Below the pieces are notes generated by a model that was not told the DNA's origin, ran no database searches, and saw only the letters and a list, made by a program, of their open reading frames with translations. A program made the translations under genes and the position numbers. Below are positions 27,430-49,720 of a stretch of DNA of 64,000 nt, piece after piece (the first letter of the stretch is position 1; each line of letters opens with the position of its first letter). Origin of the DNA: an uncultured Alphaproteobacteria bacterium (lineage in GTDB: Bacteria > Pseudomonadota > Alphaproteobacteria > HIMB59 > GCA-002718135). The stretch covers positions 22,196-86,195 of the forward strand of contig CACIIL010000001.1 of NCBI GenBank assembly GCA_902586695.1, given 5' to 3'.

Positions 27430-28359
27430 TTAACAACAAAAATTATCTTCAAACACCTTCATTATTTCGAAAGTATAATCTTGTTTTAGGTGTCTATTAT
27501 CTTCTAAAAAAGGATCTACAAAATATTCTTTAGTAATTTCATAAGACGGAAAATAGTACAAATCTTCTTTATTATTATATTTTGAAATTACATTATCTAA
27601 AGCAACCCTTAAAATAGATTTAGATATTGAGTTTGCTGTTATGCAAGATTGAGGCCTAAAAGTTGCCATCAAAGGAATTGGGGAAAGAGTATATATAATT
27701 GATGCATTAGGTTTATATTTTTTTATTACAGAGTAAATACTATCTAAATTATTAGTATTTTCTTCAACTGTTGAGACTCTAAAACCATGTTTATTTTCAT
27801 CAAATTGACTGGCGGGAATTGCTTTCCAAAAAACCTGGTTATTTAATTTATTATACCATACTTCTGCAAGGCCAACAGTTATGATAAAAATATCAATTTT
27901 GTTTAATAAATTTAAAGTTTGCTCTCTTATTTCAAAGTCATTTCTTTCTTCTTTTTGAGATGTATAATACCATGTATTTTTTTCAATATCTTTATTTTCA
28001 AAAGCCCAAAGTAATTGTTCTAAAACAGTAAAGGTGTTTGCCATACCCTCTCCATAACGAATGATATGAGTATCGGTTGACATTTTTTTATTGAAAATAG
28101 AATAATTTTTATTTGCAAGATAAGAAGATACTTCTGCAGCAAAACAACTACCAAATGCAAGAATATTTTGTTTTTTTGTAATAAATGGTTTTTTTGGTTT
28201 AAATCCTTCTAATATATATTTATCAAAAAAATTCTTATCTTTAAAATGTTTTTTAGAAGGAATAAAATTACAATTTTTTCCTCTAAACCAATGCCCTCCA
28301 AATTTTTGAGAGTCACTTTTTGTTTTATATATTAATGGGTCTAACCTATACCTTTTCAT
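27430..28359 (-). CDS. GSCFA-domain protein
   Basis: Contains the eponymous motif (AFGSCFAAEV). Size is consistent with the GSCFA family. Function unknown. Confidence 0.75.
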   Translation of the reverse strand: MKRYRLDPLIYKTKSDSQKFGGHWFRGKNCNFIPSKKHFKDKNFFDKYILEGFKPKKPFITKKQNILAFGSCFAAEVSSYLANKNYSIFNKKMSTDTHIIRYGEGMANTFTVLEQLLWAFENKDIEKNTWYYTSQKEERNDFEIREQTLNLLNKIDIFIITVGLAEVWYNKLNNQVFWKAIPASQFDENKHGFRVSTVEENTNNLDSIYSVIKKYKPNASIIYTLSPIPLMATFRPQSCITANSISKSILRVALDNVISKYNNKEDLYYFPSYEITKEYFVDPFLEDNRHLKQDYTFEIMKVFEDNFCC

Positions 28360-28461
28360 TTTTATATCTATTTAATATACACAATTAAAATTAATATAAA
28401 TAAAAAAATAGTTATTATTGAGTTTTGGTTTGTTTAGTTTTTAAAAAATGAATTTATTATT

Positions 28462-29115
28462 TTAGTTTTTTATAAGGTCGCCAAGCAGACTATAATCATT
28501 AGTATATATTTTTTTTACTTTTGTTATTTGATATGCATTTAACTCTAAAACAAATTCCTTGCCCCCTGTTTGGATTTTAGGAAATTTTCTATCTTGACCA
28601 AAAAAATTATTTATTTTTTGTTCAAATGTTTTAATATTTGAAGTAATGCCAATTATATTAAAATAACTCAAGTCATTACCCAGCCAATAATTTTGAGGAA
28701 GAAAATGCTTGTTTTCAAAAAGGTTGTTTTCAAGCTTTTCAATAACCATATCAACTGTATGATTATAAAATTCCTTATCTTTATGAAATAAAACTCTATT
28801 TTTGTATGCTGATAAAAATCTTTTTAAAGGATCTCTGACAATACATGCTCTATAGTCTACTTGTAATTTTGTAAATCTATTCTTGCTTTTAAACCAATTT
28901 GTTAAATTTGTTTTTCCTTCAAAACTATCTTGTAATTTTTTAGTTTGTTTAAATCTAGGTATATTATCCTCTATAAAAAAAAATTTATCTAATAAATCTA
29001 AATGACTAGCAAAAAAAAGTTTAGCAGAGGAATTTGCATTTTTTTTTACAGGATAAAATACTAATTTTTTATTTGTTTTTTTATTAAAAAAGACCGGGTA
29101 TACTGGGTTTTTCAT
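28462..29115 (-). CDS. Sulfotransferase family 2-like protein
   Basis: Candidate PAPS-binding blocks: YPVKKNANSS (5'-PSB-like) and IVRDPLKRFLSAYKNRV (3'-PB-like, RDP..R..SAY). Confidence 0.6.
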   Translation of the reverse strand: MKNPVYPVFFNKKTNKKLVFYPVKKNANSSAKLFFASHLDLLDKFFFIEDNIPRFKQTKKLQDSFEGKTNLTNWFKSKNRFTKLQVDYRACIVRDPLKRFLSAYKNRVLFHKDKEFYNHTVDMVIEKLENNLFENKHFLPQNYWLGNDLSYFNIIGITSNIKTFEQKINNFFGQDRKFPKIQTGGKEFVLELNAYQITKVKKIYTNDYSLLGDLIKN

Positions 29116-29185
29116 TTTTTTTATTCTATACTAATTGACTGCTTTAATCTATCTAACTTGAATTTTTATAAATAATTTCAAAGTG

Positions 29186-30241
29186 TTATTTATGTAAATT
29201 TAAATTCTTTGCTGACCAGTAAAACCTATCATTTCTTACAAGGGGATGAAAGCTATTTCTACCAACAGCAGTATTGAAATTATTAAAATTAAAAGAAGTT
29301 AGTATTTTAATAAAATTAATTCTTTTATTAATTTGGTTTGAAAATTCTTTATCTAAGAAAATTGTTTTAAAATCATTATTCGTTAGAAAATAGTTTTCAT
29401 AAATACACTGTGTTTGCCATGAAAAACCTTCTATAAATAAGTTGTTGTTATTTAAATAATACTTTGGTTCACTTATTTTTTCATTAAGCTTTATAAGATA
29501 AATATTGTTATCATATTGAAAAATATTTCTTTCTTTACTAAAATGAACTAAGATTTTTTTTTCGATTTGTTTATTAACTATATTTAAAAGAACAACAAAT
29601 TCAGTTATAAGCCCTTTACAAATATTTTCAAAATTATACTCTAATTCTGCCTCTCCCTTTACAATTCTTTTTCTTATTTTTTCTATTTCATTAAAATTTG
29701 TAAAATTTTTTTCTTCTATTTCAGCACCAAGTAATTTTAAGCAGTTGATTGTATGTATTATAGAGTGTCCCGTCAGCAATAATGCTTTATGACTTCTTTT
29801 TTTCTCAATAATTAGATTTATTAATGTTGTTATTCTATTGTGAATTTGTTCAAATGAATTTAATATGTTTTGGTATGGATTTAAATTTTTAGATTCAAAA
29901 CTTATTTTACCTGTTAATATTTTTAATTCTGAAACTGGATTGTATGTCATGTATGGCAGCATTTTTATTGATGACAAAGGATATATATGGGGTAAATGAT
30001 GGAAGTATATCTCTTTGTTGGGTAAATCTTTTATTGCTTCTTTAAATAAATATAAAAATTGAGAAGACAAAACAAAATTGTCTTTGAAAACAAATATTAA
30101 ATCTATGTCTGAAACACCTGGACTTTTTATATGACCATTGTGAATAATGTTTTCAGGCACAAGGTTGCTCGGTAGTTTTTTTGAAAATTCTAAAACATAA
30201 TCAATAGTTCTATTATAATCTTCTATATTTAAAGCTTTCAT
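29186..30241 (-). CDS. Divergent nucleotidyltransferase-fold protein with helical C-terminal region
   Basis: NGHIKSPGVSDIDLIFVF resembles the Pol-beta NTase G[SG]-x(9-13)-D-x-D motif, but with GH in place of GS. 1-nt TAATG overlap with the upstream NTase gene. Confidence 0.4.
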   Translation of the reverse strand: MKALNIEDYNRTIDYVLEFSKKLPSNLVPENIIHNGHIKSPGVSDIDLIFVFKDNFVLSSQFLYLFKEAIKDLPNKEIYFHHLPHIYPLSSIKMLPYMTYNPVSELKILTGKISFESKNLNPYQNILNSFEQIHNRITTLINLIIEKKRSHKALLLTGHSIIHTINCLKLLGAEIEEKNFTNFNEIEKIRKRIVKGEAELEYNFENICKGLITEFVVLLNIVNKQIEKKILVHFSKERNIFQYDNNIYLIKLNEKISEPKYYLNNNNLFIEGFSWQTQCIYENYFLTNNDFKTIFLDKEFSNQINKRINFIKILTSFNFNNFNTAVGRNSFHPLVRNDRFYWSAKNLNLHK

Positions 30242-31305
30242 TAAATTAAGTATTTTTCTGAAATTTCATTTAAAATTTCATTTTTTTGAATATTTACACT
30301 CATATTTATTGAGTCAACCATGATATTTTTTATAAATTCCTCACTCACACCAATATTTGACATTTGAAGCTCTGCCCAATCACTTCTAATTAATGATGCA
30401 CTATTAAATAAATCAATTTCTTTTTTAGATTTATATTTATGTATCTTATTTTCAAAAATATTTTTTTTATCAAGATAGGTTCCAAATATAATTTCAAACT
30501 CTAAAATAATTAACATAAAGTAACTGCTTATTAATTGCTTCAAAAAAAATAAATTATTTATTTTGTCTTGGCTTTGTAAATCAATCATAATTCTTAATAT
30601 GTTGAAAAAACTTTCAATCTTTAAATCTAAATCTTCCCTTATGCCTTTTATTGTTATTTCATGATTTTTAGAAGACGAGCCTTTTTCAAGTGCGGAAATA
30701 GGCATAAAGCTTTCAGGGTAACAATCCAAGTCAGACTCAAGGTTAATGAAAACTTTATGATGAGAAACAGGGTCGAAAAATGCTATTTTTTTATTTAATG
30801 CCTCTATTTGAAAATATGCTTCTCTTAGTTCTTTTTCACTATTAATTAATTTATTTTTAATAAATATACTTACATCAACATCACTAAACCTTGTACTTTG
30901 CCCATCAGATTGACTTCCATGTAATATTATTGAAAAATAATCAAAATGGTTTTCTTCACACATTGACAATATCTCACTCCCAATATTTGTTATGGAGTTA
31001 CTTTCTAGGCCTTTTAATGATTTATCTAATTTAGTTTTTTTAAATAAACTTGAGAAATCAAAGTTTAGGTATTCAATTACGTTTGAATTATCACTTCCTA
31101 AAAAAGAGTAAAAAGAATTAACAGGATCTATGTTTATTTTTAAATTATTGTTTAGAAGCAATGACAAAGATTTTTTTCTCATCCTTTGGGCTATGCTGTA
31201 TTTTCTACAATTGTTTATAAACCTCGGATCAAATAAAAGCTTAATATTTTCATCTATTTTAATAGATTTTGAATTTAATGTTGAATATATTTCGCTAAAA
31301 TTCAT
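30241..31305 (-). CDS. Nucleotidyltransferase (Pol-beta superfamily) domain protein
   Basis: Canonical ILHGSQSDGQSTRFSDVDVSIFI (GS...DxD) at residues about 128-148, flanked by an approximately 125-aa N-terminal region and a helical C-terminal region with no recognised motifs. Confidence 0.6.
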   Translation of the reverse strand: MNFSEIYSTLNSKSIKIDENIKLLFDPRFINNCRKYSIAQRMRKKSLSLLLNNNLKINIDPVNSFYSFLGSDNSNVIEYLNFDFSSLFKKTKLDKSLKGLESNSITNIGSEILSMCEENHFDYFSIILHGSQSDGQSTRFSDVDVSIFIKNKLINSEKELREAYFQIEALNKKIAFFDPVSHHKVFINLESDLDCYPESFMPISALEKGSSSKNHEITIKGIREDLDLKIESFFNILRIMIDLQSQDKINNLFFLKQLISSYFMLIILEFEIIFGTYLDKKNIFENKIHKYKSKKEIDLFNSASLIRSDWAELQMSNIGVSEEFIKNIMVDSINMSVNIQKNEILNEISEKYLI

Positions 31306-31306
31306 C

Positions 31307-32116
31307 TTATTTTAGGATTTCTTTTATTTCATGAACAACAGTTTCTATTGAAATAAGCCGCATACACTCTTTGCAGTGCTGACAAATATTTTTGCTTCCA
31401 CAAGGTGAGTTAGGCAAATCAACATAAATATTTTTATGGAAATCATAACCTGTAATTTCAGGACTTATATGCCCACCAAAAATAACAACTGCCTTGCACG
31501 AAGTGGCCGCTGCTGCATGATGCATTCCTCCTTCAGTTCCAATAAAGAGATCACATTTTTCGAGAATTGCAGCACTATTTCTAAAATTAATACCATGAAT
31601 GTTAATACATCCTTCAATCGGCTTAAGGTCACCGTATGTTATATGTAAAAATTCATATTTATCTATAAGTTTTGAAACAACCTCTTTCCATTTTTCTATT
31701 CCCCAGTCTCTATTTTGATAACCTCTTCTTATTTTTACATAGGGCTCTATAAAAATTAGTTTTTTGTTGCCAATTTTATTTCTTATTTTTTGTATTACAG
31801 ATTTAGAAAAATCCTTTTCACTTTTTGAAAAAAAAATCTCACCCTTTTTTGCTTTATAATTTTTATTCCATGTATAAAAATCTTTATGTCTACTTTTGTC
31901 GTAAATTCTATATGGTCTATTACCTTCATAATTTTTAATCCAAACAATTTTTTTATATTTTGAAATTTCATTTATATCAATAATGTAAGGATTATTATTA
32001 AAGACCTCATTCCAATAAGATAGCGTCCCATCACCAACTACAAACTTTGCATCACGAATATTTTTTCTAATTTCTTTAATTTCACCTGTTGCCATTAAGG
32101 CGTCGCCTAAACCCAT
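31307..32116 (-). CDS. Glycosyltransferase family 9 (heptosyltransferase-like), short form
   Basis: GLGDALMATG at the very N-terminus and GTEGGMHHAAAATSCKAVVIFGG near the C-terminus (GT9 donor-binding block). 269 aa is shorter than typical GT9 enzymes. Confidence 0.7.
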   Translation of the reverse strand: MGLGDALMATGEIKEIRKNIRDAKFVVGDGTLSYWNEVFNNNPYIIDINEISKYKKIVWIKNYEGNRPYRIYDKSRHKDFYTWNKNYKAKKGEIFFSKSEKDFSKSVIQKIRNKIGNKKLIFIEPYVKIRRGYQNRDWGIEKWKEVVSKLIDKYEFLHITYGDLKPIEGCINIHGINFRNSAAILEKCDLFIGTEGGMHHAAAATSCKAVVIFGGHISPEITGYDFHKNIYVDLPNSPCGSKNICQHCKECMRLISIETVVHEIKEILK

Positions 32117-32117
32117 C

Positions 32118-32705
32118 TTAGAATCTTTCTAAGCTAACATTGAAACTAATTACTATTCTTTTATTGTTTGAATTATTAGGATTTACTGAATGCTCTAAAT
32201 AACTAGGAAACAAAACTAATAAACCCTCTTCAGGTTGAACTGAATTTACTGAAGCATTTAATATATTTGGAGATTTAGCAACTGGATGTCTATAAACTGG
32301 TGCAGGTCGAGGATCATAAAAAACAATATCACCACAATTTTTTTCTGCAGTAACGTAATACGCAGCACTTAAGTCACTATTCCCATGATGATGTCTTTGG
32401 TTAAATGCACCTTTTTCATTTATGATTGCCCACATGCTAGTAATTTTAACTTCTTGTTTTTCTAAATCCCAATTCATATCTTTTAAAGCTTGGTTAATAT
32501 TTAACTTTATTGCTTGAGTAAAATTTTTTGGAGCATCTTCGTTCAGATTAAAGTCATGGGAATGCCAACCATTAAAATTACTTTTTTTAATACCTTCTGA
32601 ATCTTTTTTTTGCAAATCCAAAATATAAGATAAAATTTCTTTATTAATTATCTGATGATTAGATATTTTTGATGCCCATACAGGAGTAGAAAAAAATAAA
32701 TGCAT
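32118..32705 (-). CDS. TIGR02466-type putative 2OG-Fe(II) oxygenase
   Basis: SMWAII...G.FN.RHHHGNSDLSAAYYV and LLVLFPSYLEHSV.PN....RIVISFN match the family signature as I recall it. Confidence 0.7.
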   Translation of the reverse strand: MHLFFSTPVWASKISNHQIINKEILSYILDLQKKDSEGIKKSNFNGWHSHDFNLNEDAPKNFTQAIKLNINQALKDMNWDLEKQEVKITSMWAIINEKGAFNQRHHHGNSDLSAAYYVTAEKNCGDIVFYDPRPAPVYRHPVAKSPNILNASVNSVQPEEGLLVLFPSYLEHSVNPNNSNNKRIVISFNVSLERF

Positions 32706-42465: not shown

Positions 42466-43349
42466 ATGAAAAAAGCACTCGAATATTTATATATATTTTC
42501 AAAGTTTAGCACATCCTTAATACTACTTATATCTATTTTAGTACTTGTGTATTTTTTCTACATTAGTTTCAAAAATCAAGAAAAATCAACAAATGATCAG
42601 ACTGAAATTTTTTACGAAAAACTAAATCAAAATTCAGAAGAGATATATAAAGTCTTAAAAAAAGTAGAAATAACAGATTCGGCTTTGGTTGAAATTAAAA
42701 AATTATTACAAAAAACGCCTGAAGAAAACAATTTACAACAAATAAATGAGTTAAATATAAAAATAATTGAATTGAACTCAAAGCTTGAAAGTATATCAAT
42801 TGATTTAAAAGAAATTAAAACTTTAAATACTGCTCAACAAAAAAATGAATTTTTAGCAAGTAATAATAAAAACTCAATATTAGAAAAAAATAAGTCACAA
42901 ATAGCAAAATTAACTATTTTAAAATTTGAAAATAATTTAGATTTTACTGAAGAGCTAAGTGTTTTGCAAAATTTAAATGATGCTAAAAAAATCACATATT
43001 TGAAAAAATTAATTTAATTAATTTGAAGAATTATAGAGGAAACCTTTTTTTGAAAAAAACTTTTTCTAAAGAGTCTGATATTTTTCTTAAAAACAAAATT
43101 GATAATAATAATGTAATAACCAATTCGTTAATGGAACTTGTTTTAGTTGAGCCATCAAAAAAAAATAATATTAAAAATAATGAAATAAATATTTTAAAAG
43201 AAATTATTTATCTACTTGAACAGAAAAACTATAATAGTTCATATGAAAAAATTTCTATTATTAATGATTATGAAAATTACTTTAGTAATACAATAAATCA
43301 GCTCAAAATAGCTATGGAGTTTATAAAGTTGATTGAAAGGGTTAGTTAA
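42466..43349 (+). pseudogene. Membrane-anchored coiled-coil protein at the HemX/alpha-Mic60 position, split into two frames (42466-43017 and 43023-43349)
   Basis: N-terminal TM helix plus a long heptad-like region. The downstream frame is open from 42987, so a -1 shift in the A7 run (42985-42991) or the A6 run (43003-43008) joins both ORFs into one product of about 290 aa. The second ORF has only a TTG start and no SD. Confidence 0.4.
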
Positions 43350-44649: not shown

Positions 44650-45351
44650 ATGAAAAAACTATCTTGCTTTATTGGTTATGATTCTAAAGAAGATATCGCT
44701 TATAGAGTGTGTAAATATTCTTTATTAAAAAGATCTACAATTGAAGTTAATATTTTTTCCTTAAAGTTAGATGAGCTTATTGCTAAAAAATATTATAATA
44801 GAACTATAGATCCTCTTGCTTCAACTCAATTTACTTATTCAAGGTTTTTAGTTCCTGCTTTAATGAATTTTCAAGGATGGGCAATTTTTTGTGACTGTGA
44901 TTTTATTTTTTTGGATGATATATCAAAACTTCTTCAAAATTTAGATGAAACAAAAGCAGTTTATTGTGTACAACATGATTATACTCCAAAAGAAAAACAT
45001 AAAATGGATGGACAAAAACAAACTATATATCCTAGAAAAAATTGGTCTAGCTTTATTTTGTTCAACTGTTCTCATCCCAAAAACAAAAAATTAAATATTG
45101 ATCTCGTAAATAGTGAATCTGGGTCTTTTTTACATCAATTTAAGTGGTTAGAAGATAATGAAATTGGATCTTTAGATGAAAGATGGAATTGGTTAGAGGG
45201 TTGGACATCAAACCATAATCAAAGTAATCCATTCGCAGTACACTATACAAGAGGTGGTCCTTGGTTTGATGAGTGGCAAGACGTTGAATTTGCGAAAGAG
45301 TGGCTTAATGAAAGAGATGAATATCTTTCAAAAAAATTTGAAATAAGGTAG
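44650..45351 (+). CDS. GT8-like (GT-A fold) glycosyltransferase
   Basis: STQFTYSRFLVP, the DxD-type FCDCDFIFLDD, and C-terminal AVHYTRGGPW (compare GT8 HF.G..KPW). Confidence 0.55.
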   Translation: MKKLSCFIGYDSKEDIAYRVCKYSLLKRSTIEVNIFSLKLDELIAKKYYNRTIDPLASTQFTYSRFLVPALMNFQGWAIFCDCDFIFLDDISKLLQNLDETKAVYCVQHDYTPKEKHKMDGQKQTIYPRKNWSSFILFNCSHPKNKKLNIDLVNSESGSFLHQFKWLEDNEIGSLDERWNWLEGWTSNHNQSNPFAVHYTRGGPWFDEWQDVEFAKEWLNERDEYLSKKFEIR

Positions 45352-45352
45352 C

Positions 45353-47131
45353 TTATATTTTTTTTATAAATTCTTTATTTGACAAATCTTTTTTATTTAT
45401 AATTTGCAAACTATTATACCAAGGTGTTTTTCCATCTTCATAATCCCAGTAATGATAAGCAGCATGGTTTGCAGGCTTTATTAATAATGTTTTTACACCT
45501 AATGCACCAGCTAGATGTGCAGTACTATTACTTACGGTTATAAAAATATCTAATTTTGAAAGCAAGTTTGCCAAACCATTAAAATCATTGAATAGATCGA
45601 GGTTTTTTAGGGTAATGATTTTTTTATTATTGCGTTTGTTAAACAAATTAATTTCATTATTAATATCACCATATTGAAGATTAAAAAAAATAGAGTTTTC
45701 TTTTTTAAAAATAAGATCAAAATTATCTAGCTCAAGGGATTTTTCCTTAGCATATCTATTTTTGAAACTTTTCCAAGATAATCCAATTTTTAAACCTTTG
45801 TGACTTTCAATTATTGAATCCAATTCTTTATTTCGATAGTTTTTTATTTTTTTTAAATAGGGTGTATTGCTAAAAGATTCCCTGCTTTTTCTAAAGTATC
45901 TTCCTAAACTTCCGGCATAAATAACATAATCAAATTTTTCAATACTATTTTTGTTTTTGGAGTGATAGCCTAGTTCAACAAATTTATTACAATCAACTTT
46001 TCTAAAAGAGTTTTGAAAAAGATCTATAAGTCTCGGATCGCTCTCAATTATTACATTATTATATTTGTTAAATAAATCTGAATACATTGTTCCATAAAGT
46101 AATTCATCCCCAACTCCCTGCTCTCTTAAAACAAGTATTTTTGAATTAATATTAATACTATTATTTTTAGGTAATTTATTTTTAACAAAATCTAAAGTTG
46201 TATTTTTACTTATAAAATCAGACAAACCTAGTCTTCCATCAAAGTGCATCCAAGCCTTTTTAAAATCATATTTTCTTAACAATATTAATGCAAAAGTTTT
46301 ATTAATATCACTATTTTCATTTTCTAAACTTAAGGCTTTTCTGCAATAGTTTTCTGCATTTTTTATTTTACCAATACTTAAATAAGTTTTTGCAATATTA
46401 TTTATTACAATGCTATTTTTTGGTCTTATGCTTTCTGCATGCTTGTAAAATTTTAATGCTTTGTTATATTCTCCTTCTTCTAAATAAAAACCCGCGATAT
46501 TATTAAGTGTTTCAAATATTTTTGGATTAATTTTAAGAGCTTTTAAAAAATATACTTCTGCATCCTTTGAATTTCTAATCTCATGATTTAATCTTCCAAG
46601 AGAATTTAAAACCTCAATATTATTTGTATCAATTTTTATTGCTTTTAAAAAAATATTATTAGCTTCTTTATATTTTTTAATAGATAAATAACTTAAACCA
46701 AGAGTATTCAATACCTTTATATTTTTATTTTCTTTATTAAGAATTTTTTTACATACATTTATTGAGGCTTCATAATTTTTTAATCTAAATAAAGCATATG
46801 CTTTATCCTGATAAATTTGAGTTAGCGTAGAATTTTCTTTTTCAAGATCATTTATAATATTTAATGCTTCTCCAAAAAGTTCTTTTGAAAAATATAAAAT
46901 GTACAAATTAGTTTTAGATTTTAAATCTGAATTATTTTTTATAAGAGATTTATAATTTACTTCAGCCTCATCAAGTAAACCAAGTTCCTGCTGCATAACA
47001 GCAAGATTGAAACGCATATTTATATTTTTATTATTTTGTAAATAAATTTTTTTAAATTTTTTGTATGCTGACAGTTTGTTACCTTCAGCATATTGTTTTA
47101 TTACTTTATTAAGTTCATCAGATAAATTCAT
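45353..47131 (-). CDS. TPR-repeat protein fused to a GT9-like glycosyltransferase domain (paralog 2)
   Basis: N-terminal approximately 300 aa of TPR-like repeats. C-terminal REQGVGDE...IGLSWKS...DLFNDF...TVSNSTAHLAGALGVKTLLI (GT9-type block). Confidence 0.7.
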   Translation of the reverse strand: MNLSDELNKVIKQYAEGNKLSAYKKFKKIYLQNNKNINMRFNLAVMQQELGLLDEAEVNYKSLIKNNSDLKSKTNLYILYFSKELFGEALNIINDLEKENSTLTQIYQDKAYALFRLKNYEASINVCKKILNKENKNIKVLNTLGLSYLSIKKYKEANNIFLKAIKIDTNNIEVLNSLGRLNHEIRNSKDAEVYFLKALKINPKIFETLNNIAGFYLEEGEYNKALKFYKHAESIRPKNSIVINNIAKTYLSIGKIKNAENYCRKALSLENENSDINKTFALILLRKYDFKKAWMHFDGRLGLSDFISKNTTLDFVKNKLPKNNSININSKILVLREQGVGDELLYGTMYSDLFNKYNNVIIESDPRLIDLFQNSFRKVDCNKFVELGYHSKNKNSIEKFDYVIYAGSLGRYFRKSRESFSNTPYLKKIKNYRNKELDSIIESHKGLKIGLSWKSFKNRYAKEKSLELDNFDLIFKKENSIFFNLQYGDINNEINLFNKRNNKKIITLKNLDLFNDFNGLANLLSKLDIFITVSNSTAHLAGALGVKTLLIKPANHAAYHYWDYEDGKTPWYNSLQIINKKDLSNKEFIKKI

Positions 47132-48918
47132 TAAATTTTATCAATCATCTTATTAACTAAATCTATTGTTTTACCAATAGAACTTTCTAATTTAATAATA
47201 GAAACACTTTCATACCAAGGAGTTTTACCATTTTCATAATCCCAATAATAATATGTGGAAGATTTCTTGGGACAAATTAAAATAGTTGGTACCCCTAAAG
47301 CACCAGCAAAATGAGCCGTTGAGTTGCTAACTGTTACAAAAATATCTATATTTTTTAATATACTAATCACTGAGTCAAAATCATTAAATAAATCAATTTC
47401 GTTAAAATTATAAATTTTATATCCATAGCTATTTAAATCATTAATTTCTTTATTTACATCCCCATATTGTAGATTAATTATTGTTCTATCATTGTTGAAT
47501 ATTTTCTCAAAATTTTTCAAATCTAGAGACTTTAAGCCCCCATATATGTTTACGACACTTTTCCAAGATAGGCCAATTTTTTTTGTTTTATTAAATTTAT
47601 TTAATTTTTCACAAATATTATTATCTATATTTATATTAGATTTAAGAAATGGTTTTTTAGTAAAATCAGATTTATTTTTTCTAAAATATTTGGTTAAGCT
47701 ACCGGCATAAATTACCTTATCAAACCTTTTTATATTTTTTTTTGTTGAAGAAAAATAACCATATTTAAAGAAAATATTTTTTTTATAGGTTCTTTTAAAG
47801 ATTTTTATTAATCTCTCATCACACTCAATTGATAAGTTGTTACATTGATTTATTAAATTATAATACATACTACTAAATAATATTTCATCACCCACACCTT
47901 GCTCTTTAACTATAAGAATTTTATTATCTGGATTTATTTCATCTTCTTTTATTAACTTGTCTAAAATATTTTTATGATATACGTTTTTTTCAGGAAATTT
48001 ATTTGTTAATAACCTTGCATCAAAAAGTTTAAAACCTTCATCAAATTTATATTTGCTTAATAGAAGATAAGAGTAGCCAAGTATAAAATCAAAATTTTGA
48101 TGTTTTTTATTTTTAGTCGAGTTGTAATAATTTTGTACCCATTTAAAATCTTTTAGCCTACATTTGCACATTGCAATATTTTCATCAATTATAATATTTT
48201 TTGGATTTAGATTTTTAGCTTTTAATAAAAACTTTATTGCCAATTTATTTTTATCTTTAAGTGATAAAATATTTGCAATGTTTATGATTGGCAGATCAAT
48301 TTTTGGATTAATTCTATATGCTTTTTTAAAATATAAATATGCAACATTAAGATTTTCTAAATCAATATAACACTTACCTATATTGTTGTAACTATCTGTA
48401 TAGTTTTTATCAAGAGATATTGCTTTTTCAAATATCTTTATTGACTCAAATATTTTTTTACTTGACATTTTTAAGAGCCCAAGAATATTTAAACCAAAAA
48501 CTTCATTTGGGTTAAGACTGAGCGCTTTACTAATAAATATCTCAGATTCCTTTAAGTCTTTTCTCAAATATCTTAAGTAGGCTTTGTCTCTTAAAACCCC
48601 ATATTTAATATTTTTTAGCTTCAATAGCTTATCAATGTAATGCTCTGCTTTTTCAAATTTTTTTACCTTTAATAAGTTCACGTAAATCATTTCAATTGCT
48701 AAATTGTTTTTAGGTTCCAATAAAAGTATTTTAGACAAAATTGATATTGCTTTATCAATTTGATTAACACTAATAAGCATTTTGGTATAAACAAATAATA
48801 AATCTAAATTTTTTTCATTAGAACTTAATAAGAATTCGATTTCTTTTAAAGCCTTCTCCTTGTCTCCAGCATTAAATTTTTCAACTATGGAGATTGTCTT
48901 ATCATTTATTTTTTGCAT
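47131..48918 (-). CDS. TPR-repeat protein fused to a GT9-like glycosyltransferase domain (paralog 1)
   Basis: Same architecture. KEQGVGDE, IGLSWKS, NLQYGDVNKEIN, DLFNDF, TVSNSTAHFAGALGV and YYWDYENGKTPWY are collinear with the downstream paralog. 1-nt TAATG overlap. Confidence 0.7.
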   Translation of the reverse strand: MQKINDKTISIVEKFNAGDKEKALKEIEFLLSSNEKNLDLLFVYTKMLISVNQIDKAISILSKILLLEPKNNLAIEMIYVNLLKVKKFEKAEHYIDKLLKLKNIKYGVLRDKAYLRYLRKDLKESEIFISKALSLNPNEVFGLNILGLLKMSSKKIFESIKIFEKAISLDKNYTDSYNNIGKCYIDLENLNVAYLYFKKAYRINPKIDLPIINIANILSLKDKNKLAIKFLLKAKNLNPKNIIIDENIAMCKCRLKDFKWVQNYYNSTKNKKHQNFDFILGYSYLLLSKYKFDEGFKLFDARLLTNKFPEKNVYHKNILDKLIKEDEINPDNKILIVKEQGVGDEILFSSMYYNLINQCNNLSIECDERLIKIFKRTYKKNIFFKYGYFSSTKKNIKRFDKVIYAGSLTKYFRKNKSDFTKKPFLKSNINIDNNICEKLNKFNKTKKIGLSWKSVVNIYGGLKSLDLKNFEKIFNNDRTIINLQYGDVNKEINDLNSYGYKIYNFNEIDLFNDFDSVISILKNIDIFVTVSNSTAHFAGALGVPTILICPKKSSTYYYWDYENGKTPWYESVSIIKLESSIGKTIDLVNKMIDKI

Positions 48919-48924
48919 AAAAAA

Positions 48925-48947
48925 ACCCAGTCTATCAAAGACTGGGT
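48925..48947 (-). terminator. Rho-independent terminator downstream of the BI-1/YccA gene
   Basis: The minus strand reads ACCCAGTC-TTTGATA-GACTGGGT followed by TTTTTT. It ends 7 nt before the start codon of the next gene. Confidence 0.7.
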
Positions 48948-48967: not shown

Positions 48968-49720
48968 TTATCTTCTTTGCCCAAAAAGCTGAAGAAGTAA
49001 TATAAATAGGTTTATAAAGTCTAGATAAAGCTTTAGAGCCCCCATAAGTGCCTTTTTTGAACCAATTGCTTCGCTGTCGCCCCCATAATACATATTTTTA
49101 ATATTTTGAGTGTCATATGCAGTTAGTCCTACAAAAACGAGTACTCCAATTACGGATATAGCAAACTGCATTGCACTACTACCAATAAACATATTAACAA
49201 TACTTGCTATAATTATTCCTATTAAACCCATAAAAAGAAATCCACCAAGTTTAGTGAGATCTCTTTTTGTTGTGTATCCATATAGACTCATTGCGCCAAA
49301 TGTTCCCGCTGTTATAAAAAATACTCTTGCAATAGAAGTTTGTGTAAACTCAATAAAAACTGATGCCAAAGAAAGCCCCATAATGCTTGCAAATAACCAA
49401 AATGTTATTTGTGCTGTTGAAACTGACATTTTTGATATTCTCGCGCTAAGGTAAAAAACAAAACCAAGTGGAGCAAGCATAATCACCCACTTTAGTGGAG
49501 ATCCAAATAACAAAGCACCAATTTGTGTTACTCCAATAATTTGACCCATTTCGTTTGTAACTATTGAAGCTTTACCAAAAAAATAAGCTATAAAACCTGT
49601 AAGCATTAAACCTATTGTCATATAATTATAGACTTTAAGCATGTAAGCTCTTAAGCCTTCATCAATAGCTGCTTGATCTACTGTTTTAGTAAATGATCGT
49701 TGATTAAAGTCTAAAGCCAT
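48968..49720 (-). CDS. Bax inhibitor-1/YccA family membrane protein
   Basis: Seven predicted TM segments and the family-typical ...FLRKVY-like (YMLKVYNYM) N-terminus and C-terminal LYLDFINLFL.LL.. Confidence 0.9.
   Translation of the reverse strand: MALDFNQRSFTKTVDQAAIDEGLRAYMLKVYNYMTIGLMLTGFIAYFFGKASIVTNEMGQIIGVTQIGALLFGSPLKWVIMLAPLGFVFYLSARISKMSVSTAQITFWLFASIMGLSLASVFIEFTQTSIARVFFITAGTFGAMSLYGYTTKRDLTKLGGFLFMGLIGIIIASIVNMFIGSSAMQFAISVIGVLVFVGLTAYDTQNIKNMYYGGDSEAIGSKKALMGALKLYLDFINLFILLLQLFGQRR

Follow-up and report, generated by a model that had tools for sequence, protein, structure and literature searches.

Introduction

Protein glycosyltransferases in which a tetratricopeptide repeat (TPR) domain guides a GT-B catalytic domain have been known as a class since 2020, with FlmG of Caulobacter, a soluble protein of 596 residues that carries TPR at residues 1-313 and GT-B at residues 309-596 (Ardissone et al., eLife 2020, PMC7591256). 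The TPR domain of FlmG binds flagellins, and the isolated glycosyltransferase (GT) domain shows no binding, no complementation, and no activity in vivo; in a background that produces pseudaminic acid, FlmG suffices for flagellin modification (PMC7591256). FlmG has been described in Caulobacter crescentus and Brevundimonas subvibrioides, and a swap of its GT-B domain changes the donor from pseudaminic acid (Pse) to legionaminic acid (Leg) (preprint 10.1101/2022.03.25.485807). In this study, we analyzed two tandem genes, open reading frames (ORFs) A and B, in a 64,000-nucleotide stretch (hereafter the window) of contig CACIIL010000001.1 from an uncultured alphaproteobacterium, whose products appear to be further members of this class. 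The novelty lies in the setting: the tandem pair is ancient and fixed in the core genome of a marine clade that is non-motile and has streamlined genomes. On balance, we lean towards reading A and B as FlmG-class soluble cytoplasmic protein glycosyltransferases, in which the TPR domain would bind a non-flagellin acceptor and the GT-B domain would transfer a sugar to it.

An N-terminal TPR superhelix preceding a C-terminal GT-B domain, as in A and B, is also the layout of OGT, SPINDLY (SPY), and the bacterial OGT homologues of family GT41. The GT9 enzymes, by contrast, are without a TPR arm. Among them, WaaC and WaaF use Kdo-lipid A as the acceptor, and TibC is an iron-containing dodecamer. Cytoplasmic GT9-like TibC and GT41 HMW1C modify Sec-exported adhesins.

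The tandem gene pair

The two genes and their domains lie on the minus strand at the following window positions.

47131..48918, minus: ORF B, 595 aa, TPR plus GT-B (FlmG-class), upstream paralogue (ORF list, Pfam TPR matches, BLASTP)
45353..47131, minus: ORF A, 592 aa, TPR plus GT-B (FlmG-class), downstream paralogue (ORF list, Pfam TPR, BLASTP, AlphaFold2)
46226..47131, minus: predicted TPR domain of ORF A, with nine pairs of helices over about aa 1-302 (model helices H3 to H302, Pfam, Foldseek match to the OGT/SPY TPR superhelices)
45356..46234, minus: predicted GT-B (GT9-like) catalytic domain of ORF A, aa 300-592 (AlphaFold2, Foldseek, family profile)
48019..48918, minus: TPR domain of ORF B, about aa 1-300 (Pfam TPR matches, collinearity with the TPR half of A)
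47134..48021, minus: predicted GT-B (GT9-like) domain of ORF B, aa 300-595 (48-50% identity to the A domain, family-invariant residues kept)
47129..47133, minus: TAATG stop/start overlap of B and A, translational coupling (read from the sequence)

The minus-strand junction reads AAAATTTAATGAATTTA, in which the TAA of ORF B and the ATG of ORF A have one base in common, and the same one-base overlap was found in loci L003, L005, and L006. BLASTP aligned A with B collinearly along their whole length (38% identity over 581 aa, E 2e-111), a similarity far above chance. Both proteins carry EQGVGDE, IGLSWKS, NLQYGD, DLFNDF, TVSNSTAH.AGALGV, and GKTPWY, all of which fall in conserved columns of the wider-family alignment. 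An earlier note on this DNA had claimed two ORFs of 592 and 595 aa with a one-base TAATG overlap as well as GT9-type motif blocks; the ORF list and the sequence confirmed the former, and each quoted block was located in A and B at conserved family columns. The GC content of the A/B region is about 22-27%, and the whole window has 22-37% GC throughout.

Relationship to FlmG

For retrieval of a FlmG orthologue, the cloning primers in the supplement of the FlmG paper gave a 47-nt stretch encoding FQIPGVRWSGQDLRGK, and a genome collection was scanned with a third-position-degenerate pattern made from this stretch, which led to Caulobacter vibrioides OR37. The ORF found there encodes 598 aa, begins with MARKSAL (MSRKSAL in the primers), and contains FQIPGTRWSGQDLRGK. 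Its neighbours encode a GNAT acetyltransferase, a CTP_transf_3 cytidylyltransferase, FlbT, and two flagellins. The identity of the OR37 ORF as the FlmG orthologue was verified by this flmGH/flagellin neighbourhood, which matches that described in PMC7591256.

The OR37 protein aligned collinearly with ORF A at 22% identity over 525 aa across both domains (BLASTP, E 7e-28), and with ORF B at E 3e-26. When scored with a hidden Markov model (HMM) built from relatives of the A domain, its C-terminal domain reached 304 bits (E 1e-93), and ORF B scored 303 bits. The catalytic domain of the FlmG orthologue gave no Pfam match, as was the case for A and B. The likeness extends to length (596 aa in FlmG, 592 in A, and 595 in B), to the domain order of about 300-310 aa of TPR followed by about 290 aa of GT-B, to the motifs EQGxGDE, W-K-S, NLQYGD, SN-T-x-LAGA-G, and PWY common to the FlmG orthologue, A, and B, and to the soluble nature of all three proteins with a GT domain invisible to Pfam. 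Judged by these alignments, A and B are FlmG homologues with equal architecture and size, and FlmG is their closest CHARACTERISED (characterised) relative.

Several differences from FlmG were also observed. The GT domain of FlmG is only about 22% identical to those of A and B, and its TPR domain only about 15-17%. FlmG adjoins flagellins, FlbT, GNAT, and cytidylyltransferase genes, whereas A and B lie between Bax1-I/YccA-like and GT8-like genes. Furthermore, A and B are two tandem, coupled paralogues, whereas only one FlmG copy is present in the 8-kb Caulobacter locus examined. Finally, the host clade of A and B is non-motile, which would exclude flagellin as the acceptor.

A second contig, L002, labelled as a Bradyrhizobium sp. 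metagenome-assembled genome, carries an ORF of 598 aa that equals that of the OR37 locus L001, with 304.0 bits for both and mirrored orientation. This contig probably derives from Caulobacter via contamination or mis-binning.

Fold of the catalytic domain and architecture of the full-length protein

With Pfam and NCBIfam, TPR repeats alone were recognised in A and B, and these were confined to the N-terminal halves (TPR_8, E 4e-24 in A; TPR_2, E 5e-17 in B). The C-terminal halves (A aa 300-592, B aa 300-595) gave no Pfam match even at E 10 and no phmmer match against PDB sequences. Because of this lack of Pfam and PDB matches, three lines of evidence were needed for the designation GT9-like. 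Distant members of the family of the A domain scored above the Pfam Glyco_transf_9 threshold (P0199, 50.6 bits; P0207, 29.3 bits), and seven of 28 mutually diverse family domains matched PF01075, whereas none of the 28 matched GT41. A profile of these 28 domains had one match in the PDB, E. coli heptosyltransferase II WaaF (E 0.005), and this alignment placed EQGxGD on the VGD of WaaF and the (T/S)xxNxxAHLAGALG block on its TNDSGLMHVAAAL. The AlphaFold2 model of the A catalytic domain was confident (pLDDT 89.6, pTM 0.89), and its top Foldseek matches in the PDB were all GT9: WaaF (1psw, E 5e-7), a Veillonella GT9 protein (3tov), WaaC (6dfe, 2gt1, 2h1h), and the protein heptosyltransferase TibC (4rb4, 4rap).

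Among solved folds, those of WaaC, WaaF, and TibC are hence nearest to the catalytic domain, with Foldseek E-values of 5e-7 to 3e-4 and a probability of 1.00, and an N-terminal GD motif and a C-terminal D/S-x-x-x-x-H-x-A-x-A motif align with WaaF. The structural-alignment identity, however, is 11-15%, with TM-scores of 0.48-0.56. As judged from the model, the C-terminal domain is predicted to be a GT-B fold nearest to the GT9 heptosyltransferases. Since distant family members match PF01075 while A and B themselves do not, the tie to PF01075 holds at the superfamily or clan level. The assignment of the C-terminal domain as GT-B of the GT9 kind, made in the earlier note, agrees with both the nearest solved structures and the profile link.

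In the full-length model of ORF A (pLDDT 90.7, pTM 0.84), 18 helices form nine TPR-like pairs that extend to about residue 302, and a two-lobed Rossmann-type GT-B comes next. Its best whole-chain Foldseek matches were SPINDLY (E 1e-15) and OGT (E 3.5e-13), with low TM-scores of 0.27-0.46. The catalytic domain, in contrast, found no GT41 chain among its top 50 Foldseek matches, and PF13844 (GT41) matched neither A, B, nor any of the 28 family members. On the modelled structure, A and B would therefore resemble GT41 in architecture, with a different catalytic-domain family. The "OGT-like logic" proposed earlier is thus retained for the TPR plus GT-B layout shared with OGT and SPINDLY and is lost for the catalytic domain, which by Pfam and Foldseek has no match in GT41; in the combined HMM and structure comparison, the domain belongs with GT9 by fold and profile, even though A and B stay below the PF01075 threshold.

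These structural results bear on another explanation, namely that A and B are directed to a glycan (LPS, that is lipopolysaccharide, core, capsule, or another envelope oligosaccharide), with the TPR domain as an oligomerisation or scaffold module and the GT8-like enzyme encoded next to A in the same pathway. The closest solved folds, WaaF and WaaC, and the sole PDB profile match, WaaF, are in its favour, as is the presence of the TPR-containing capsule polymerases 8a0m and 8qoy among the structural matches; flagellin, moreover, is not expected in SAR11, the clade to which the host appears to belong. On the other hand, the only characterised full-length homologue of equal domain order and size is a protein glycosyltransferase, and A and B are soluble and without a membrane anchor: no hydrophobic or transmembrane segment and no signal-peptide-like N-terminus was found in either protein. 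We consider a glycan-directed role rather unlikely, and its ranking is taken up again with the GT8-like gene.

Divergence of the two paralogues

In four genomes, the paralogues were identical at 26-30% of positions in the TPR half and at 44-50% of positions in the GT half, as expected from the earlier observation of collinear C-terminal halves and more diverged TPR halves. Among divergent single-module proteins of the family, the TPR halves separate A-like from B-like lineages, and the A/B duplication is therefore older than the divergence of the sampled lineages. When eight proteins of the A clade were aligned with eight of the B clade, identity between the clades was about 25% in the TPR domain and 42% in the GT domain. 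In the GT domain, 45 columns were invariant in both clades and identical between them, 28 of which were also common to FlmG, and only three columns carried fixed differences between the clades; the TPR domain had only seven shared invariant columns. The proposal of one chemistry with two targets, put forward in the earlier note, fits these 45 invariant GT columns against three fixed differences at a TPR identity of about 25%, and it also fits the division of labour in FlmG, where TPR determines the acceptor and GT-B the donor. A diverged TPR domain with a conserved catalytic core is, furthermore, typical of acceptor-reading modules and not of the scaffolds that a glycan-directed role would involve.

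The ratio of nonsynonymous to synonymous substitution rates (dN/dS) was estimated against an orthologous locus of 89% identity. The values were 0.11 (TPR) and 0.13 (GT) for A, and 0.21 (TPR) and 0.13 (GT) for B. Both halves of each protein are thus under purifying selection (0.11-0.21), and the pair together with the GT8-like gene shows dN/dS of 0.1-0.2.

Every family-invariant residue is kept in both A and B. This result is relevant to a further possibility: either protein, or both, might have lost catalysis and act as a TPR scaffold, or might employ the GT-B fold in some reaction that is not a glycosyl transfer. Such a role might be suspected from the catalytic domains being without a Pfam match of their own and from the window showing no donor pathway. 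However, the GT domain of FlmG is likewise without a Pfam match, the family-invariant residues present in both paralogues are common to the active FlmG, and the GT halves are equally under purifying selection. Among these residues are the carboxylate motif EQGxGD, which aligns with the GD of WaaF, and the C-terminal T/S-x-x-H-L-A-G-A, which was also aligned to WaaF. Loss of glycosyl transfer in either protein is accordingly regarded as very improbable.

Host clade and synteny

The block comprising the Bax1-I/YccA-like gene, B, A (with its start overlapping the stop of B), and the convergent GT8-like gene is kept in five other marine contigs, where it continues with HemY-like, HemX-like, TsaD, EVE, and acetyl-CoA synthetase genes. 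Protein identity to these syntenic contigs ranges from 89% down to about 40-48%. The duplication, which had been described as conspicuous in a streamlined genome, is real, although the five syntenic loci indicate that it is ancient and fixed in the core genome and no recent oddity.

Those homologues that carry a name are labelled "Pelagibacteraceae bacterium" or "Alphaproteobacteria bacterium", and the contigs were obtained from marine metagenomes, Tara among them. These names and sources, along with the base composition, point to a genome of SAR11 type. All known SAR11 have been reported to be non-motile (10.1101/2022.07.21.501054). No flagellar gene was found near the pair in the window or in the five syntenic loci, and no gene of NeuB/PseI type or CTP_transf_3 adjoins it in the 64-kb window. 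Because SAR11 is non-motile and no flagellar gene lies near the pair in six genomes, the acceptor of A and B very probably differs from flagellin.

One may ask whether another filament takes the place of the flagellum, so that A and B modify type IV pilins or some other exported surface protein in the cytoplasm before export, in analogy to flagellin glycosylation. This would be a special case of the reading favoured here, since FlmG modifies a filament subunit before export, and the presence of TibC among the structural matches is compatible with it. Nevertheless, pilin or adhesin genes were found near the locus in none of the six genomes, and the labels "pilus assembly protein PilF/TadD" given to relatives reflect mere generic TPR COG assignments. 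We therefore regard pilins or surface proteins as an improbable answer.

The wider family

An exhaustive phmmer search with the C-terminal domain of A retrieved 16,086 representatives of 50%-identity clusters at E <= 1e-3. Source annotations read "tetratricopeptide repeat protein", "Flp pilus assembly protein TadD", or "Tfp pilus assembly protein PilF", and the label "TPR-containing glycosyltransferase family protein" was given to only one of 120 family members. Many family proteins are 1,000-3,100 aa long and have two to five alternating TPR and GT modules, with Pirellulales and Cyanobacteria among their hosts; examples are P0121, P0122, and P0161, which reach up to 3,140 aa and are annotated merely as TPR proteins. 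These multi-module proteins may be "assembly-line" versions of the FlmG architecture. A convergent invention, as the earlier note had suggested, was not borne out, for A and B belong to a large and mostly unannotated family whose founding member FlmG was described in 2020.

The neighbourhoods of distant members were spot-checked in three cases. P0555 (L012 1-5645) adjoins DHDPS/NanA-like, CTP_transf_3 cytidylyltransferase, major facilitator superfamily (MFS), and BNR-sialidase-like genes, which hints at a donor of the sialic-acid type. P0506 (L013 4585-5973) directly follows a TPR plus sulfotransferase protein, a context that suggests paired TPR-guided modifying enzymes. The neighbours of the third member were uninformative.

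The GT8-like gene

The gene that converges on A is the following.

44650..45351, plus: GT8-like (GT-A) gene, 233 aa (Pfam PF01501 sub-threshold, homologues, synteny, dN/dS)

Its product scored 23.5 bits (E 4.8e-5) against Pfam Glyco_transf_8 (PF01501), just below the cutoff of 24.3, and reading of the sequence revealed a DxD motif (CDCDF) and an HY..GGPW motif. The 4271 homologues include some named "lipopolysaccharide biosynthesis glycosyltransferase", and a few orthologues have a precomputed PF01501 match; no PDB sequence match was obtained. One base separates the stop codons of this gene and A, so that the convergence noted earlier was confirmed.

The GT8-like gene adjoins A in all related loci examined, and this constant adjacency, with one source naming a "lipopolysaccharide biosynthesis glycosyltransferase", is a further point for a glycan-directed role of A and B. 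However, the gene starts 3 nt past the HemY-like gene, on the strand opposite to A and B, and because of this 3-nt gap it is assigned to a HemX/HemY-like operon separate from the A/B transcription unit. It also evolves more slowly: identity was 86% for the GT8-like protein versus 45-64% for A and B in the same genome pairs (L003, L005, L006), with dN/dS of about 0.09-0.10. The adjacency may thus be frozen synteny (86% versus about 60%). The earlier note was right about a convergent GT8-like neighbour, whereas the Pfam call is borderline, the gene is part of the opposite-strand HemX/HemY-like operon, and any functional tie to A and B would be no more than putative. The protein-directed nature of FlmG, the soluble proteins, and the operon and rate of the GT8-like gene are the reasons why glycan acceptors are ranked below protein acceptors for A and B.

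In the same operon, the HemX-like gene, upstream of the HemY-like gene (window 42466-43349, plus strand), is split into ORFs of 183 and 108 aa in different frames, whereas a single ORF of 292-295 aa is present in related loci. The frame change lies near an A/T-rich run at about 43000-43020, and the split is either a frameshift or an assembly error.

The hairpin upstream of ORF B and other features of the window

One further element was identified upstream of the pair.

48925..48947, minus: GC-rich hairpin plus T-run, terminator-like, between the Bax1-I gene and ORF B (terminator scan)

The hairpin, which spans 48919-48947 on the minus strand with its T-run and lies between the Bax1-I gene (48968-49720) and ORF B, has a 9-bp GC-rich stem ACCCAGTCT, a 5-nt loop, and AGACTGGGT, followed by T6-7; the T-run leads straight into the start codon (ATG) of ORF B. 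Five loci share exactly this stem, even though the spacer around it has diverged and the ORF B protein falls to 36-60% identity. No second copy was found within the window, and Rfam gave no match. From its sequence, the hairpin looks like an intrinsic terminator that would leave no promoter space before ORF B; expression of B and A may therefore depend on read-through, or else the hairpin may have a regulatory role.

Elsewhere in the window, a very AT-rich run of genes (27430-32705, minus strand; GC 0.22-0.26) encodes a GSCFA-family protein, a Sulfotransfer_2 protein, a 2OG-FeII_Oxy_5 oxygenase, and two ORFs of 351 and 354 aa without a Pfam match. A separate GT9-like ORF of 269 aa (31307-32116; PF01075, 28.2 bits) is also present in this run and, by HMM, is unrelated to the A/B domain family. 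The run may be a small modification or glycosylation cluster.

Discussion

A protein-directed role is the best reading of A and B because their closest characterised homologue, FlmG, is a flagellin O-glycosyltransferase, and in this respect our result agrees with the earlier note, which preferred protein modification to LPS heptosylation. The TPR arm and the homology to FlmG argue against a role in ADP-heptose transfer to the LPS core. In the mechanism we propose, the TPR superhelix (about 300 aa) of A or B would bind the acceptor protein, and the GT9-like GT-B domain (about 290 aa) would transfer a sugar from a nucleotide-activated donor to this acceptor, probably on Ser/Thr. B and A would be translationally coupled, and they stem from one duplication that predates the divergence of the sampled marine lineages. 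The strong divergence of the TPR halves, with a nearly constant catalytic core, would correspond to two acceptors or acceptor sets handled by the same or similar chemistry, and the acceptors would be proteins other than flagellins, the SAR11 clade being non-motile. We thus infer a protein acceptor, an O-linkage, cytoplasmic action, and two acceptors with one donor.

Several points weigh against this interpretation. A and B share just 22% identity with FlmG, the sole characterised member of a family with over 16,000 clusters, in which functions may therefore vary widely. LPS is the target of WaaC and WaaF, whose catalytic folds are the nearest among solved structures. In some capsule polymerases, TPR domains oligomerise rather than choose the acceptor, and the TPR-bearing 8a0m and 8qoy are among the weaker Foldseek matches. 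The neighbouring genes (Bax1-I/YccA-like, GT8-like, HemY-like, and TsaD) hint at no glycoprotein or sugar pathway. Since the GT halves are just 44-50% identical, the two enzymes could use different donors. The putative SAR11 assignment, moreover, is based only on named homologues and genome style.

The occurrence of the pair in a non-motile host clade implies non-flagellar acceptors. Taken together, it is conceivable, and we put it forward tentatively as somewhat short of probable, that the most abundant bacterial clade of the ocean keeps in its core genome a FlmG-type pair that was retargeted from flagellin to two non-flagellar acceptor sets. If this is true, SAR11 would have a dedicated and so far unseen layer of protein O-glycosylation. 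This layer would either regulate proteins after translation, in an organism that has very few transcriptional regulators, or decorate proteins that are exported or lie at the surface.

Public annotation describes genes of the A/B type just as "TPR protein" or "pilus assembly protein TadD/PilF". Because the catalytic domain is invisible to Pfam in FlmG, A, and B, the family is systematically under-annotated, and the FlmG fold, which spans over 16,000 sequence clusters and includes giant proteins built of 2-5 TPR-GT modules, would, if our reading is true, be a general and largely unannotated bacterial counterpart of OGT. The locus points to non-flagellar protein glycosylation in SAR11, and the TPR domains of A and B offer two concrete baits for finding its targets.

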